Origin: an uncultured Bacteroidales bacterium
GTDB taxonomy: Bacteria > Bacteroidota > Bacteroidia > Bacteroidales > JAEINX01
NCBI GenBank assembly: GCA_964462015.1
Contig: CAYWXI010000026.1
Location: 233-64,232 of the forward strand
DNA: 64,000 nucleotides
Direction: 5' to 3'
The notes under the pieces were generated by a model. It was not told the DNA's origin, made no database searches, and saw only the letters and a program-made list of their open reading frames with translations. This document shows, in pieces, positions 12,821 to 55,007 of this stretch; positions within the stretch are counted from its first letter, which is position 1; every line of letters begins with the position of its first letter. The position numbers were made by a program, and so were the translations under genes.

Positions 12821-12835
12821 GTGTTTGTGTTTTTT

Positions 12836-12883
12836 AGAAATTAGAAATTGGAAATTGGGTTTTCTTCCAAATTTCCAATTTCG
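12836..12883. repeat. GAAATT-word hairpin (family member 1)
   Basis: AGAAATTAGAAATTGGAAATTGGG-ttttctt-CCAAATTTCCAATTTCG. Confidence 0.6.
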
Positions 12884-33232: not shown

Positions 33233-33277
33233 GGGAAATTAGAAATTTGGCACTCTTCCTAATTTCTAATTTCTAAC
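33233..33277. repeat. GAAATT-word hairpin (family member 2), abutting the batD stop codon
   Basis: GGGAAATTAGAAATTTGG-cactctt-CCTAATTTCTAATTTCTAAC. The right arm ends 1-2 nt from the minus-strand TGA at 33279-33281. Confidence 0.6.
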
Positions 33278-36161: not shown

Positions 36162-36224
36162 GAAATTGGAAATTAGAAATTGGAAATTCTGTTGCTCCTG
36201 AATTTCCAATTTCTAATTTCCAAC
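36162..36224. repeat. GAAATT-word hairpin (family member 3) with a 24-bp perfect stem, abutting the batB stop codon
   Basis: TTGGAAATTAGAAATTGGAAATTC (36166-36189), 10-nt loop, GAATTTCCAATTTCTAATTTCCAA (36200-36223). The batB stop codon is at 36225-36227. No U-tract follows on either strand. Confidence 0.85.
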
Positions 36225-50317: not shown

Positions 50318-51562
50318 TTGAAAAAGAAAATTTTAATACAAAATATAAAAGAGCTTGTTCAGGTTGAAGAAAAGCCAAGAAGAAAAGTCTGCGGAAAGGA
50401 TATGGCAAAACTTTCAACAATAAAAAAAGCTTATTTGATTATAGAAGACGGAATAATTTCAGGATTTGGAAAAATGCAGGATTTACATGATTATTCAACA
50501 GATTTAATAATCAACGCTAAAGGCAAAATGGTTTTTCCTTCGTTTTGTGACTCACACACTCACCTGGTTTATCCGGAAAGCCGTGAAATTGAATATATTG
50601 ATAAGATAAAAGGATTATCATATGAAGAAATTGCAAAACGTGGTGGTGGCATATTAAACTCGGCAAGAAAAATGCACGAAACTTCGGAAGAACAACTGAT
50701 TGAGTCGGCGATTGAACGCTTAAATGAAATAATGCTACACGGCACAGGTGCTGTAGAAATAAAAAGTGGCTACGGCCTGAACACCGAAGATGAACTAAAA
50801 ATGTTAAGAGTGATTAAAAAATTAAAAAAAATATCACCTCTTACAATTAAATCTACTTTTTTGGGAGCTCATGCTGTACCGCAAAAATATAAAGCTGATC
50901 AATCTGAATACGTTGATTTGATAATCAATGAAATGATCCCAATGGTTGCAGCAGAAGAACTGGCCGATTACATCGATGTTTTTTGCGATCGTGGCTTTTT
51001 TACCGGTAAAGAAACAGACAGAATATTAAATGCAGGAATGAAATACGGTTTACGACCAAAAATTCATGCTAACGAACTTGATTATTCCGGTGGAATTCAG
51101 GTTGGAGTAAAATATAATGCACTTTCTGTCGATCATTTGGAATTTACGGGTGCTGAAGAAATCAAGGCCTTGTTGGATTCCGAAACGATGCCGACTGTTT
51201 TACCAGGTGCTGCTTTTTTCCTGGGAATGGTTTATGCACCTGTCCGAAAAATGATTGATGCCGGTTTACCCGTAGCTTTAGCAAGCGATTTCAATCCGGG
51301 TTCTTCTCCTTCCGGTAATATGCAATTCATACTTTCGATGGGAAGTATTGCATACAAAATGACTCCCGAAGAAGGAATTAATGCAACTACTATTAATAGT
51401 GCTTATGCTATGGATGTCAGCGAAGAACTTGGAAGTATCGCTATAGGAAAAAAGGCAAATATTTTTATTACCAAAAAAATCCCGACTTATGAATTTATGC
51501 CTTATTATTATGGTACAAACAAAGTTGAAACTGTGATTTTGAATGGGGAAATATGCAATTGA
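50318..51562 (+). CDS. hutI: Imidazolonepropionase
   Basis: Sequence PSFCDSHTHLVY...EIKSGYGL...KIHANEL...ASDFNPGSSP. Confidence 0.9.
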   Translation: MKKKILIQNIKELVQVEEKPRRKVCGKDMAKLSTIKKAYLIIEDGIISGFGKMQDLHDYSTDLIINAKGKMVFPSFCDSHTHLVYPESREIEYIDKIKGLSYEEIAKRGGGILNSARKMHETSEEQLIESAIERLNEIMLHGTGAVEIKSGYGLNTEDELKMLRVIKKLKKISPLTIKSTFLGAHAVPQKYKADQSEYVDLIINEMIPMVAAEELADYIDVFCDRGFFTGKETDRILNAGMKYGLRPKIHANELDYSGGIQVGVKYNALSVDHLEFTGAEEIKALLDSETMPTVLPGAAFFLGMVYAPVRKMIDAGLPVALASDFNPGSSPSGNMQFILSMGSIAYKMTPEEGINATTINSAYAMDVSEELGSIAIGKKANIFITKKIPTYEFMPYYYGTNKVETVILNGEICN

Positions 51563-51589
51563 TTATTTTTGCATTTAAATGATTATACA

Positions 51590-52606
51590 ATGAAAATTGA
51601 ATCTATAAATATTAAAAATTATAAATCGCTTGTTGATATAAAAATTAATAAACCGAATCCTTTTACGGTTTTTGTTGGGCCAAATGCCTCAGGAAAGTCT
51701 AATATTTTTGAGGCAATTGATTTTGAGTCTTTTGCTGAAAACAACAAAGAATTTAATAAAATTTTTAATGTATTTGGTAGTTTTTCTGACTTAATTAATA
51801 AAAATGCCTATCAAAAAAGTCAAAATTCAAAAATTGGTTTTCATATCAATTTAAATATGGACGGGGAAAGTAATACAATTTCTATGCAATTAGATGCAGA
51901 AGGTCGTATTTTTCCTAAATATGATATTCCTAATCAAAATCTAATGATTAAGACGATTTTAAAGGAACCGTCATTACTCCAATTATATTTCAAAATCGTA
52001 CAAAGATTATTTATCAATAATTATAGCATTGAACGCCAAAAATATCAAGATGATCAAAAGCTTGATATTTACGCTTCTAATCTTGAAAAAGTTTTAAAAA
52101 GATTGTTAAAAAATAGAGATAAAAAAGATGAATTAATTGAGTTGCTTCAATTATTTATTCCCGAATTTGAAAATATTGAAGTAAGTACAAATGAACTTTC
52201 AGGTGATGATTCATTATTGATTTATGAGAAATTCACAAAAAAACCATTTTCAAAGAATTTGATTTCCAATGGAACTTTCAATATTCTTGCATTATTAACG
52301 GCAGTTTATCAGTCGGATGAACCACAGTTTTTATGTATAGAAGAACCTGAAAACGGTCTAAATCCTCAAGTGATTAAAGAACTGGTTGGATTTTTCAGGG
52401 AAGCATGTGAAGAAAAAGGCCATTACATTTGGCTTACAACACATTCACAAACATTGGTTTCCGAACTTCAACCAAAAGAAGTAATAATTGTTGATAAAGA
52501 AAACGGGGAAACAAAAATCAAACAATTTGAAAATCTGAATCTACATGGCTTGAAAATGGATGAAGCCTGGCTTTCAAATGTACTTGGTGGAGGATTGCCA
52601 TGGTAA
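51590..52606 (+). CDS. ABC/SMC-type AAA ATPase (AAA_21-like), first gene of a two-gene candidate defence module
   Basis: The N-terminus MKIESINIKNYKSL and Walker A GPNASGKSN, signature-like SNGTFN, Walker B FLCIEEPENGLNP and H-loop TTHS. Its stop overlaps the next start (ATGGTAA at 52600-52606). Confidence 0.75.
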   Translation: MKIESINIKNYKSLVDIKINKPNPFTVFVGPNASGKSNIFEAIDFESFAENNKEFNKIFNVFGSFSDLINKNAYQKSQNSKIGFHINLNMDGESNTISMQLDAEGRIFPKYDIPNQNLMIKTILKEPSLLQLYFKIVQRLFINNYSIERQKYQDDQKLDIYASNLEKVLKRLLKNRDKKDELIELLQLFIPEFENIEVSTNELSGDDSLLIYEKFTKKPFSKNLISNGTFNILALLTAVYQSDEPQFLCIEEPENGLNPQVIKELVGFFREACEEKGHYIWLTTHSQTLVSELQPKEVIIVDKENGETKIKQFENLNLHGLKMDEAWLSNVLGGGLPW

Positions 52607-53202
52607 AAGCAGGCTTTATCGGCGAAGGAAAATCAGAAGAAATGATTCTCAATTCCAAGCCATTTTCATCTTTTTTGAAAAAAAATAACGTTAAAAACAT
52701 CGGTGTTTTCGATGCAGGTGGTGAAGGAAATTTTAAAGTTGAAAGTGAAAAAATCATCAGCTTCTTCAATATATTTTCTGATAGAAATGCTGATTTTGTT
52801 TTTTTGCTTACCGATTTAGAAGATGATCCTTGTATTACAGAAACAAAAAGCCAAATTTTTAAATTTTGTAAAGAGCGACAAGTTGAGATCATTGCAGTAA
52901 AAGCCATAGAATCCTGGTTTCTTGCCGATTCAGAATCTTTATCTAAGATTTTTAAAAAAAAGTATTACTTTGAATACCCTGAGAATACAGATGGAAAACC
53001 TTTTTTTTTAATTAAAAAGGAATTTTTAGAAAATACCGGCAGAGGAACAAGTAAAGGCAGGTTGACTAGAAAAATGTTAAAACATGGTTTCACAATTGAA
53101 AATGCCGCAAAACACGATAATTGTAGAAGTGCAAAATATTTTATCAATAAATTAAAAGAAATATCCATGACCCCGAGAATTCGGGATCACACAAAAAAAT
53201 AA
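52600..53202 (+). CDS. DUF4276/TOPRIM-like protein, second gene of the module
   Basis: 200 aa. An N-terminal acidic motif GFIGEGKSEE, a DxD-like LLTDLEDD and AIESWFLAD match the DUF4276/Toprim pattern as I recall it. Confidence 0.55.
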   Translation: MVKAGFIGEGKSEEMILNSKPFSSFLKKNNVKNIGVFDAGGEGNFKVESEKIISFFNIFSDRNADFVFLLTDLEDDPCITETKSQIFKFCKERQVEIIAVKAIESWFLADSESLSKIFKKKYYFEYPENTDGKPFFLIKKEFLENTGRGTSKGRLTRKMLKHGFTIENAAKHDNCRSAKYFINKLKEISMTPRIRDHTKK

Positions 53203-53217
53203 TTATTTTATAAATTT

Positions 53218-53270
53218 TGAAACTTGAAATTTGGATTCCCCCGAATTTCTAATTTCCAATTTCTAATTTC
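53218..53270. repeat. GAAATT-word hairpin (family member 4, imperfect)
   Basis: TTGAAACTTGAAATTTGG-attcccc-CGAATTTCTAATTTCCAATTTCTAATTTC, 16 bp after the DUF4276-like stop. Confidence 0.5.
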
Positions 53271-53318
53271 TAAAAATAAAATCAACTAAAAATATATTAA
53301 AATAAAAAACACAAAAAC

Positions 53319-55007
53319 ATGAAACAATTAATTGAATGCGTTCCGAATTTTAGCGAAGGACGTGATATGAATATTATAAAACAGATCACCGACGAAATTG
53401 AAAAAGTCGAAGGAGTTAAATTGTTAGACGTTGATCCGGGTGCGGCAACAAATCGTACGGTTGTAACCATTGTCGGAACTCCTGACGAAGTTTGCGAGGC
53501 TGCCTTTCGTGCCGTTAAAAAGGCATCACAAATAATTGATATGAGTAAACATAAAGGCGAACACCCTAGAATGGGAGCTACTGATGTTTGTCCATTGGTT
53601 CCTGTTTCAAATATTACAATGGAAGAAACTGTGGAGTATGCCCGTAAACTTGCAAAACGTATCGGTAAAGAACTTGAAATTCCGATTTATTGTTACGAAA
53701 ATGCAGCTTTTACTGAAGAAAGAAGAAATTTGGCTACCTGCCGTTCAGGCGAATACGAAGGCATGGCAGAAAAACTTACCATTCCAAAATGGAAACCCGA
53801 TTTCGGCCCGGCAAAATTAAATGTTAAGGCAGGCGTTACTGCCGTTGGAGCAAGAGATTTTCTGGTTGCTTTTAATGTTAATCTCAATACAACTTCAACG
53901 AGGCGTGCAAATGCAATTGCTTTTGATGTCCGTGAACGAGGACGCACAAAACGTGAAGGTGATCCTGTTACCGGAAAAATTGTTAAGGATGAAAAGGGTA
54001 AACCTGTGATGATTCCGGGTAGCCTGAAATGCGTTAAAGGAATTGGCTGGTTTATCGAAGAATACGGTATTGCTCAAATTTCCATGAACCTTACAAATAT
54101 CAGTGTAACACCGGTTCATGTTGCTTTCGACGAAACCTGTAAAAAAGCCGAAGCCAGAGGGATCAGGGTAACAGGTTCCGAACTCGTTGGATTGATACCT
54201 TTACAAGCAATGCTTGATGCCGGAAAATATTTCCTTCGCAAACAAGAACGTTCTCTTGGTGTATCACAGGATGAATTGCTGAAAATTGCCGTAAAATCGA
54301 TGGGCCTTGATGACCTCAAACCATTCAATCCGAAAGAAAGAATAATAGAATTTATTCTTCAGGATGACAATAAAAACAAACTCATCGATATGAATCTCGC
54401 TGAATTTGCAGATGAAACTGCTTCAGAATCACCAGCCCCCGGTGGTGGATCAATTTCAGCTTATGTTGGAACTCTCGGTATTTCTTTAGCAACGATGGTT
54501 GCAAATCTTTCATCACACAAAAGAGGTTGGGATAAACGTTGGGAAGAATTTAGCTCGTGGGCTGAAAAAGGCCAGAAAATAAAAGATGAACTTTTACACC
54601 TAGTCGATGAAGATACAATTGCATTTAATAAAATAATGGATGCATTCGGACTTCCTAAGAAAAGTGAAGAAGATAAAACTGCCCGTGCTCAAGCTATCGA
54701 AGATGCATCAAAATATGCTATTGAAATTCCGTTTAAAGTGATGCAAAAATCCTATGAATCAATGGATGTTATTAAAGCTATGGCAGAAATCGGTAACCCA
54801 AATTCGGTTTCCGATGCAGGTGTAGGAGCTTTATGTGCCAGAACGGCAGTAATGGGTGCTTATTTGAATGTAAAAATCAATGCTTCAGGCGTTGAAGATA
54901 AAGATTTTGTAAATAAAAAATTATCCGAAGGATTGGAAATTGAAACGAAATCTAAGCAACTTGAAGATGAAATCTTAGAAACTGTAAACGAGAAGATTGC
55001 CTCTTAG
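53319..55007 (+). CDS. ftcD: Bifunctional glutamate formimidoyltransferase / formimidoyltetrahydrofolate cyclodeaminase
   Basis: Begins LIECVPNFSEGRD and contains GATDVCP. The C-terminal half carries the cyclodeaminase motif SPAPGGGS. Confidence 0.85.
   Translation: MKQLIECVPNFSEGRDMNIIKQITDEIEKVEGVKLLDVDPGAATNRTVVTIVGTPDEVCEAAFRAVKKASQIIDMSKHKGEHPRMGATDVCPLVPVSNITMEETVEYARKLAKRIGKELEIPIYCYENAAFTEERRNLATCRSGEYEGMAEKLTIPKWKPDFGPAKLNVKAGVTAVGARDFLVAFNVNLNTTSTRRANAIAFDVRERGRTKREGDPVTGKIVKDEKGKPVMIPGSLKCVKGIGWFIEEYGIAQISMNLTNISVTPVHVAFDETCKKAEARGIRVTGSELVGLIPLQAMLDAGKYFLRKQERSLGVSQDELLKIAVKSMGLDDLKPFNPKERIIEFILQDDNKNKLIDMNLAEFADETASESPAPGGGSISAYVGTLGISLATMVANLSSHKRGWDKRWEEFSSWAEKGQKIKDELLHLVDEDTIAFNKIMDAFGLPKKSEEDKTARAQAIEDASKYAIEIPFKVMQKSYESMDVIKAMAEIGNPNSVSDAGVGALCARTAVMGAYLNVKINASGVEDKDFVNKKLSEGLEIETKSKQLEDEILETVNEKIAS

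Follow-up and report, generated by a model that had tools for sequence, protein, structure and literature searches.

The question raised by this locus is what an ATPase gene and a putative nuclease gene are doing between hutI and ftcD, two genes of histidine utilisation (hut), in an uncultured Bacteroidales bacterium. The stretch analysed, hereafter the window, comprises 64,000 nucleotides of contig CAYWXI010000026.1 (positions 233 to 64,232 of the forward strand; assembly GCA_964462015.1). As an earlier, sequence-only reading of the window had described, two same-strand genes occupy the interval between the end of hutI at 51562 and the start of ftcD at 53319; the open reading frame (ORF) scan and the sequence confirm these coordinates and place all four genes in the same direction. 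The answer that we consider moderately probable is that the two genes form an HEC-01-type module, composed of an ATPase and a Toprim-like nuclease, which is carried as an accessory cassette and likely serves in defence against phages or mobile elements. The genes and their junction are arranged as follows.

50318 to 51562, + strand: hutI-like imidazolonepropionase (amidohydrolase; Pfam Amidohydro_1 and Amidohydro_3), the upstream flank, outside the module
51590 (ATG) to 52606, + strand: gene 1, a 338-aa ATP-binding cassette (ABC) ATPase, SMC/Rad50/PtuA-like, of HEC-01A type
52600 to 52606, + strand: ATGGTAA, a 7-nt overlap in which the gene-2 start codon lies on the last codon and stop of gene 1, giving translational coupling
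52600 to 53202, + strand: gene 2, a 200-aa DUF4276-family, Toprim-like putative metal-dependent nuclease of HEC-01B type
53319 to 55007, + strand: ftcD (glutamate formiminotransferase-cyclodeaminase; Pfam FTCD_N, FTCD and FTCD_C), the downstream flank, outside the module

The family to which the pair belongs is indicated by the PADLOC search that the sequence-only reading had proposed, in which the best matches of the two proteins are HEC-01A and HEC-01B. Gene 1 matches the HEC-01A model (PDLC04176) with an E-value of 1.6e-93 (312 bits), its top match by a wide margin, and gene 2 matches the HEC-01B model (PDLC04191) with an E-value of 1.8e-52 (176 bits), the sole PADLOC family recovered for this protein. 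The window thus holds adjacent same-strand genes matching the HEC-01A and HEC-01B hidden Markov models, the arrangement that defines an HEC-01 locus. On these profile matches, the pair is clearly a member of an already catalogued candidate anti-phage family and does not represent a new system type. HEC-01, for 'Hma-embedded candidate 01', denotes an ABC ATPase paired with a TOPRIM-like protein, which has its metal-binding site in common with Burkholderia pseudomallei OLD (Payne et al., bioRxiv 10.1101/2024.01.29.577857). The window pair resembles it in its identical gene order, strand and overlap, as well as in its habit of embedding in another operon. It differs in that the host operon is a housekeeping one (hutI–ftcD) rather than Hma, BREX or restriction–modification, and in that gene 2 carries an 11-codon C-terminal extension derived from the insertion of a hairpin element. 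The combination of an ATPase with a DUF4276 protein had been described as experimentally uncharacterised; this statement is outdated, because HEC-01 has been catalogued in PADLOC and tested twice, and Mad3 and Mad4 have been studied within the MADS system.

The two genes behave as a unit across their relatives. Wherever a homologous locus extends far enough upstream, gene 2 is immediately preceded by a homologue of gene 1. The 7-nt overlap, which had been noticed in the window and is found at 52600–52606, recurs in 74 of 87 homologous loci, including a BREX-embedded copy on an E. coli plasmid, and nine further loci have a 4-nt overlap. These observations establish the two genes as one translationally coupled module. 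Gene 1 has an alternative TTG start at 51569; the ATG at 51590, which yields the 338-aa product, is backed by homologues and by independent gene calls on identical metagenome contigs.

The assignment of gene 1 as an ABC/SMC-type ATPase, already made in the sequence-only reading, is borne out at the levels of domain, fold and motif. The protein matches Pfam AAA_21 (1.7e-24, 87.9 bits) and AAA_15 (6.5e-20, 72.5 bits), both above threshold, and also SMC_N. Its AlphaFold2 model has a predicted local distance difference test score (pLDDT) of 87, and a Foldseek search of the PDB returns PtuA, SMC and Rad50 heads as the best matches, with E-values of about 1e-14. Walker A, signature, Walker B, D-loop and H-loop motifs are all present on this ABC head fold. 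All motifs that had been quoted for the two proteins are found at the expected codons; they occupy invariant or nearly invariant columns of the homologue alignments and exceed what chance would give. Those of gene 1, with their conservation among 55 homologues, are listed below, together with the variable region that separates them.

51677 to 51703, + strand: Walker A GPNASGKSN, with G30, N32, G35, K36, S37 and N38 invariant
51725 to 51994, + strand: hypervariable insert, about residues 46–135, without a majority residue in the alignment
52259 to 52276, + strand: ABC signature-like LISNGT, with L224, S226, G228 and T229 invariant
52328 to 52357, + strand: Walker B and D-loop FLCIEEPENG, with F247, I250, E251, E252, P253, E254, N255 and G256 invariant
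52436 to 52447, + strand: H-loop TTHS, with S286 invariant and T284 and H285 at least 90% conserved

Variable regions termed Insert 1 and Insert 2 have been described in HEC ATPases (Payne et al., bioRxiv 10.1101/2024.01.29.577857), and the hypervariable insert of gene 1 is a candidate sensor region.

Gene 2 belongs to the DUF4276 family, as had been supposed. The window protein matches Pfam DUF4276 (PF14103) with an E-value of 8.5e-5 over model positions 3–191 of 192; all 68 of its homologues match PF14103 (best 1.8e-9), and a precomputed PF14103 match is present on many of its database homologues. Weak cross-matches to OLD-like_TOPRIM and to Pfam RloB occur in 23 and 12 of the 68 homologues, respectively. 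The AlphaFold2 model (pLDDT 96.2) alternates four strands with helices and ends in a helical C-terminal region, and the conserved motifs fall at the following places, with conservation counted over the 68 homologues.

52615 to 52632, + strand: FIGEGK, with E9 and G10 at least 90% conserved; E9 directly follows strand 1 (residues 2–8), the position of the Toprim catalytic Glu
52810 to 52827, + strand: TDLEDD, with D72 (invariant) and E74 at the end of predicted strand 3 (residues 66–72), the position of the Toprim DxD
52909 to 52929, + strand: ESWFLAD, with E104, W106 and D110 invariant, after strand 4 (94–99); a helix (103–109) follows

Gene 2 therefore has the Toprim motif pattern of a Glu after strand 1 and a Dx[E/D] after strand 3, in which the second acidic position is either E or D and a strict D is not required. 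Because these motifs agree with the weak Pfam cross-matches and with published structure-based analyses, which place HEC-01B/DUF4276 in the Toprim superfamily with an OLD-like metal site, gene 2 is most likely a Toprim-type, metal-dependent nuclease. Several results count against this part of the interpretation. The gene-2 score of 23.3 bits lies below the DUF4276 gathering threshold of 30.2 bits; no significant Foldseek match of the model was obtained in the PDB or BFVD; and a profile search of PDB sequences returned nothing meaningful. An hhalign comparison of the gene-2 family with the single sequence of P2 Old was non-significant (probability 0.5%) and aligned just the Glu motif, FIxEGxxE against LLVEGKTE, at the start of the Old TOPRIM domain. 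A search with the C-terminal half of P2 Old, made to build an Old-TOPRIM profile, recovered five fragments and, in the phage collection, P2 itself alone. The Toprim-like fold proposed in the sequence-only reading is thus supported by the positions of the motifs, the weak Pfam cross-matches and the published analyses, whereas the Foldseek searches of PDB and BFVD did not recover the fold.

The OLD, PARIS and AbiL families, to which the pair had been likened, prove to be the right neighbourhood, as judged from the secondary PADLOC matches of gene 1 to AriA, mad3, AbiLi, NsnB and GajA, all far weaker than that to HEC-01A. A related pair with experimental data is found in MADS of Pseudomonas aeruginosa, in which deletion of either mad3, encoding an ATPase, or mad4, encoding a DUF4276 protein, lowers defence, and the mad5 methylase gene can be deleted only when mad2 or mad3 is also removed. 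Mad3–Mad4 combines an AAA_15/21 ABC ATPase with DUF4276 and has been grouped in the literature with the OLD-like ATPase and TOPRIM systems; gene 1 matches the PADLOC mad3 model at 1.8e-25. In contrast to MADS, gene 1 scores 84.5 bits against the NCBIfam MAD3 model, for which the cut-off is 420, gene 2 matches no mad4 model, and mad1, mad2 and mad5–mad8 were not found near the pair. Membership in MADS is accordingly rejected, since the MAD3 score falls below the equivalog cut-off and the mandatory mad6–8 are not among the neighbours.

PARIS is the best-understood mechanistic analogue: an ATPase scaffold frees a nuclease upon sensing a trigger. It shares the two-gene split between an ABC ATPase, AriA, and a small Toprim-family effector, AriB, and gene 1 matches AriA at 2.1e-27; the ATPase of the window is, however, much smaller (338 aa as against an AriA of about 55 kDa). 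The pair was not assigned to PARIS, because the AriA match is secondary to HEC-01A and gene 2 has no AriB or DUF4435 match. The AbiL/RloA–RloB systems likewise join an ATPase to a small RloB-like Toprim protein, and gene 1 matches AbiLi at 5.7e-24; this match is again secondary and gene 2 matches neither AbiLii nor RloB, which excludes membership. The logic of an ABC ATPase acting with a Toprim domain is common to OLD and Gabija, and P2 Old carries AAA_15/AAA_21 and OLD-like_TOPRIM; these domains are fused in Old (class 1) and GajA (class 2) but split in the pair. Gabija was rejected on this split, on a weak (1e-17) and partial GajA match, and on the lack of a GajB helicase gene in the unit. 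Finally, PtuA of Septu and retron-Ec78 provides the closest solved structures to the gene-1 model (E-values of 2.7e-14 to 1e-13), but its partner PtuB is an HNH nuclease and not a DUF4276 protein, and the score of 36 bits against the 500-bit cut-off of the NCBIfam PtuA model rules out Septu.

Whether the pair serves the pathway in which it resides can be judged from the junction itself. A HutI scan of species-representative genomes yielded 80 loci, 44 of which have hutI followed by ftcD. In 21 of these 44 loci the two genes are adjacent, with gaps of 50–310 bp, as expected from the earlier statement that they are normally neighbours. The comparison of this junction among relatives, also proposed at that time, revealed the same cassette or an empty site flanked by hutI homologues 68–93% identical to that of the window. 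The pair is present at the hutI–ftcD junction in L011 and L023, and in L004 gene 1 directly follows hutI before the contig ends inside gene 1. A further locus records a loss. In L030 (1389–1619), a 76-aa ORF consists of about 48 N-terminal residues of gene 1, through Walker A, fused in frame to about 27 C-terminal residues of gene 2. Its start overlaps the stop codon of hutI (ATGA), and 4 nt separate its end from ftcD; the ORF is a deletion scar of the cassette that keeps both operon junctions.

One alternative is that the pair has a housekeeping role, either metabolic or regulatory in hut, or in DNA maintenance. RecF, an ABC-type ATPase, and RecR, a Toprim protein, provide a precedent for such an ATPase–Toprim pairing. 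The pair is tightly coupled to hut genes; it occupies the hutI–ftcD junction in 20 loci of wide divergence and once lies downstream of hutU. Against this stand its absence from 21 of 44 otherwise identical junctions and its deletion in L030, the occurrence of the same clade in transketolase, moeA–ffh and BREX operons and on plasmids, a non-synonymous change faster than that of the flanks, and a gene 2 that is allelically hypervariable between strains. We regard a housekeeping role as very improbable. A metabolic role in hut is specifically rejected on the empty junctions, the L030 loss, the unrelated contexts and the faster non-synonymous change. Membership in the hut pathway fails equally, with absence at 21 junctions, no hut-related domain in the pair by Pfam search and the same clade in unrelated operons. 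Because empty junctions, the L030 scar and homologous pairs in unrelated contexts are all observed, the pair is accessory to hut and without a role in histidine catabolism; the universal conservation inside hut operons that the sequence-only reading had named as evidence for a metabolic role is not what the junctions display.

Two side observations concern the same interval. In about half of the related genomes (L002, L003, L021–L079), the hutI–ftcD gap measures 0.5–6 kb and holds unrelated genes, which frequently lie on the other strand; one protein of about 684 aa recurs among these other inserts, which may be other hut genes or cargo. In L087 (6588–8712), a metagenome-assembled genome of complete-genome scale, the pair follows hutI and tblastn finds ftcD residues 294–561 only, without a gene call; ftcD may be degraded in this lineage.

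How long has the cassette resided at this junction? The word 'inserted', used in the earlier reading, implied a recent arrival, which the divergence data do not support. Gene-2 homologues 38–80% identical occupy the same junction in the 20 loci, and the carriers include lineages with a hutI just 64–76% identical to that of the window. Among close relatives the flanks are 89–94% identical, gene 1 is 69–88% identical and gene 2 is 60–79% identical. Pairwise synonymous divergence (dS, NG86 method) is 0.5–1.2 for the pair and 0.5–1.1 for the flanks; because these values are similar, the pair has co-diverged with its flanks, and a recent horizontal insertion is rejected, the lower GC content of the pair being modest. 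Non-synonymous divergence (dN) of the pair is 3–7 times that of the flanks, and dN/dS is 0.09–0.43 for the pair and 0.03–0.07 for the flanks, 3–10 times higher. Since dN/dS is below 1, selection acts on both protein products. Both genes are under purifying selection that is much weaker than in the flanks, or partly diversifying.

The phylogenies point in the same direction. Most hut-associated copies form one clade in neighbour-joining trees of both proteins. In the HutI tree, the carriers are concentrated in one large clade, within which the empty sites L001, L032 and L065 and the L030 scar are nested. This pattern fits one old gain followed by repeated loss at hutI–ftcD. The exceptions are L092, an outlier in the HutI tree, and L101, L144 and L155, which the gene-2 tree places apart from the main hut clade; the resolution of the trees is limited.

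On this vertical background, gene 2 has been exchanged locally. The metagenome strains L089 and L090, otherwise 96–100% identical across about 8 kb, show 99–100% identity over hutI and the first half of gene 1 and 91–100% downstream of gene 2, whereas gene 2 itself is just 54–77% identical (L090:2000–2500), with a conserved island around ESWFLAD. In these strains the putative nuclease gene has undergone a local allelic replacement, an arms-race-like signature.

These data bear on a second alternative, in which the cassette is chiefly selfish and optimised for persistence, a promoter-poor pair of genes wedged and translationally coupled between useful genes such that most deletions would damage or de-couple the neighbours, spreading via flank recombination or nuclease-driven homing, with any host benefit secondary. 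Consistent with it, the clade lies co-directionally in many operons with spacers of 0–50 bp or overlaps (hutI–ftcD, tktN–tktC, pglX–pglZ, moeA–ffh), and the cassette runs into or directly adjoins the stop and start codons of its neighbours in L030, L170 and L172. The sole decay product seen, the L030 fusion, preserves both junctions, gene 2 is swapped by recombination between near-identical strains, and the four tree exceptions named above depart from the hut clade. The similar dS of pair and flanks and the confinement mostly to one hut clade, however, indicate mainly vertical descent and not repeated homing. No integrase, transposase or target-site duplication adjoins the cassette in the window, clean losses in some 20 lineages show that it can be lost without difficulty, and the dN/dS below 1 in both genes implies selection on the protein products. 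Related pairs, moreover, take part in defence within MADS, and one HEC-01 test showed protection. A chiefly selfish cassette is therefore, in our estimation, unlikely.

The surroundings in which the module is found are diverse. They were counted in 80 metagenome loci retrieved with a gene-2 profile, among which the following recur.

23 of 80 loci: within a split transketolase, between the N- and C-terminal halves
10 of 80 loci: hutI–ftcD
5 of 80 loci: upstream of sucD
3 of 80 loci: deaD–gldM
3 of 80 loci: inside BREX (BrxC or PglX upstream, PglX or PglZ downstream)
2 of 80 loci: moeA–ffh
1 of 80 loci: downstream of hutU

The split-transketolase insertions of Cytophagales-like genomes (including L171) have spacers of 0–3 bp or overlaps; in Larkinella knui (L172:6125–9517) the cassette is separated from tktN by 3 bp and shares 4 bp with tktC. 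The order in Runella zeae (L175) is tktN, a Uma2-family gene, the pair and tktC, so that the tktN–tktC junction behaves as a cargo slot. On an E. coli IncHI1B plasmid (NZ_CP010234.1; L176:5886–7570), a 37%-identical pair sits without spacer between pglX and pglZ of BREX-1, and L157, L129 and L141 are more distant BREX-1-embedded relatives. These BREX-1-embedded relatives are annotated merely as 'AAA family ATPase' and 'hypothetical protein'. A Pseudomonas copy of the pair adjoins TraG_N. A search of 50,697 phage genomes returned no homologue of gene 2, and IMG/VR gave one weak match (27% identical); on these results a phage-borne origin is rejected.

Embedding of the HEC type has been described for defence operons (Payne et al., bioRxiv 10.1101/2024.01.29.577857). 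No description of the embedding of this pair in housekeeping operons was found in the literature, coverage of which was incomplete, so that this is no proof of novelty. Taken across its contexts, the clade might be understood as a promoter-poor cassette that lives translationally coupled inside both housekeeping and defence operons (BREX, Hma/MADS), persists vertically and diversifies its Toprim-like gene by allelic replacement. We offer this generalisation tentatively, and it is rather doubtful as it stands.

The same contexts raise a third alternative, namely that the pair is an orphaned accessory module requiring a larger system (BREX, Hma or MADS) and provides little or no autonomous defence here. 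HEC-01 was defined as Hma-embedded and was unprotective alone (Payne et al., bioRxiv 10.1101/2024.01.29.577857), Mad3 and Mad4 work as parts of MADS, a system of eight genes in which the lethality of mad5 deletion depends on mad3, and the more distant relatives are BREX-embedded. Both genes have nevertheless been kept under purifying selection after long residence away from such systems; at least 33 of the 80 metagenome loci lie in hut or transketolase operons without BREX or Hma genes in the flanks, and a stand-alone HEC-01 representative protected against at least one phage. That the pair is such an orphan seems to us improbable.

We thus return to the defence reading. In its favour are the BREX-embedded relatives, the protection afforded by one HEC-01 representative and the need for mad3 and mad4 in MADS. 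The protective representative, reported in a later study, came from cold-seep metagenome-assembled genomes and shielded E. coli B from one or more of T4, T5 and T7. By analogy with OLD, PARIS, AbiL and MADS Mad3–Mad4, defence is the most likely role, and from these systems we infer the nuclease activity, sensing, target and phenotype of the window copy. In such a mechanism, the gene-1 ATPase would sense an infection-associated cue via its hypervariable insert; ATP binding or hydrolysis by the ATPase would then release or activate the gene-2 nuclease, which would cut nucleic acid and thereby abort the infection. Beyond the negative fold searches of gene 2, four points weigh against this reading. 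The HEC-01 representative assayed by Payne et al. (bioRxiv 10.1101/2024.01.29.577857) was unprotective; no further defence genes were seen near the pair in the window; defence systems are not typically retained by vertical descent for so long within housekeeping operons; and the near-absence from phage collections, which shows that the pair is not phage-borne, is silent on its targets.

Within its present operon, the module is compositionally distinct to a modest degree. GC content is 0.284 in gene 1 and 0.305 in gene 2, compared with 0.357 in hutI, 0.393 in ftcD and 0.319 in the whole window, and the GC content at third codon positions follows the same order (0.198, 0.249, 0.270 and 0.274 for gene 1, gene 2, hutI and ftcD, respectively). 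The AT-richness relative to the flanks, previously judged by eye, is therefore real, and small. The neighbours of the pair in the window are hutI, ftcD, a tetratricopeptide repeat (TPR) protein, def and ruvX. A 129-aa ORF on the - strand (52518–52907) runs antisense across the junction of genes 1 and 2; it was treated as probably spurious, a by-product of the AT-rich coding sequence.

The signals that could govern expression lie at the two ends of the cassette.

51564 to 51571, + strand: TATTTTTG, a match to the Bacteroidetes -7 promoter consensus TAnnTTTG, with TTTG 26 nt upstream, 18 nt before the gene-1 ATG
53167 to 53318, + strand: lineage-specific segment of about 150 bp, replacing the native gene-2 stop and 15-bp spacer of close relatives (alignment with L084, L085, L089 and L090)

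Because spacing in the relatives is tight, expression is probably coupled to the hut unit, and the pair is probably co-expressed with hutI–ftcD. It may also use its own promoter-like motif, TATTTTTG; matches to consensus of this type number 60 on the + strand of the 64-kb window, so that a chance occurrence is possible. No -7 consensus motif is found in the spacer between gene 2 and ftcD. A scan for sigma-70 promoters and terminators gave no more than shuffled sequence would, under a scan model ill-suited to Bacteroidota.

In close relatives, gene 2 ends in ...KLKEISNQ* and a 15-bp spacer leads to ftcD. The segment that replaces this end in the window adds 11 codons (MTPRIRDHTKK) to gene 2 and comprises two hairpins (53166–53191 and 53226–53249) followed by AATTTC word repeats. 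The hairpin at 53226–53249 has a 9-bp stem, and its folding energy alone is weak (z = -1.85). Together with the related intergenic hairpins at 12831–12876, 33234–33276 and 36162–36223, it forms a four-copy family built from GAAATT/AATTTC words, with a consensus of about GAAATTGGAAATTTGG-loop-CCTAATTTCCAATTTCTAATTTC; a member of this word-repeat family had been correctly noted after the pair. The downstream hairpin segment is a separate small repeat or terminator-like element and lies outside the module. A degenerate direct repeat (53134–53176 and 53201–53244; 74–87% identity over 15–19 nt, at a spacing of 67–68) may be the remnant of a former gene-2 terminus or a chance similarity in AT-rich DNA.

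As a system type, the pair adds little: PADLOC already lists HEC-01, the two tests of its representatives had differing outcomes, and the logic of an ABC ATPase with a Toprim-like effector is the one seen in OLD, PARIS, AbiL and MADS Mad3–Mad4. Its setting could be of more consequence, as the module resides in housekeeping operons of dozens of related Bacteroidota, outside defence islands. Worth following are its placement among housekeeping genes, its prolonged co-divergence with the flanks and the swapping of gene-2 alleles; the natural alleles and empty sites offer material for working out the function of HEC-01. A caution follows for 'guilt by association' searches, which will miss copies embedded among housekeeping genes. 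This pair may exemplify embedding in operons as a persistence strategy. If the tentative generalisation drawn above is true, embedding would be intrinsic to the module and not a property of defence islands, for possible reasons that include operon-coupled expression, protection from deletion and spread through conserved flanks. Conserved housekeeping junctions of Bacteroidota would then be long-lived slots for immune or selfish cargo, as exemplified by Runella zeae.

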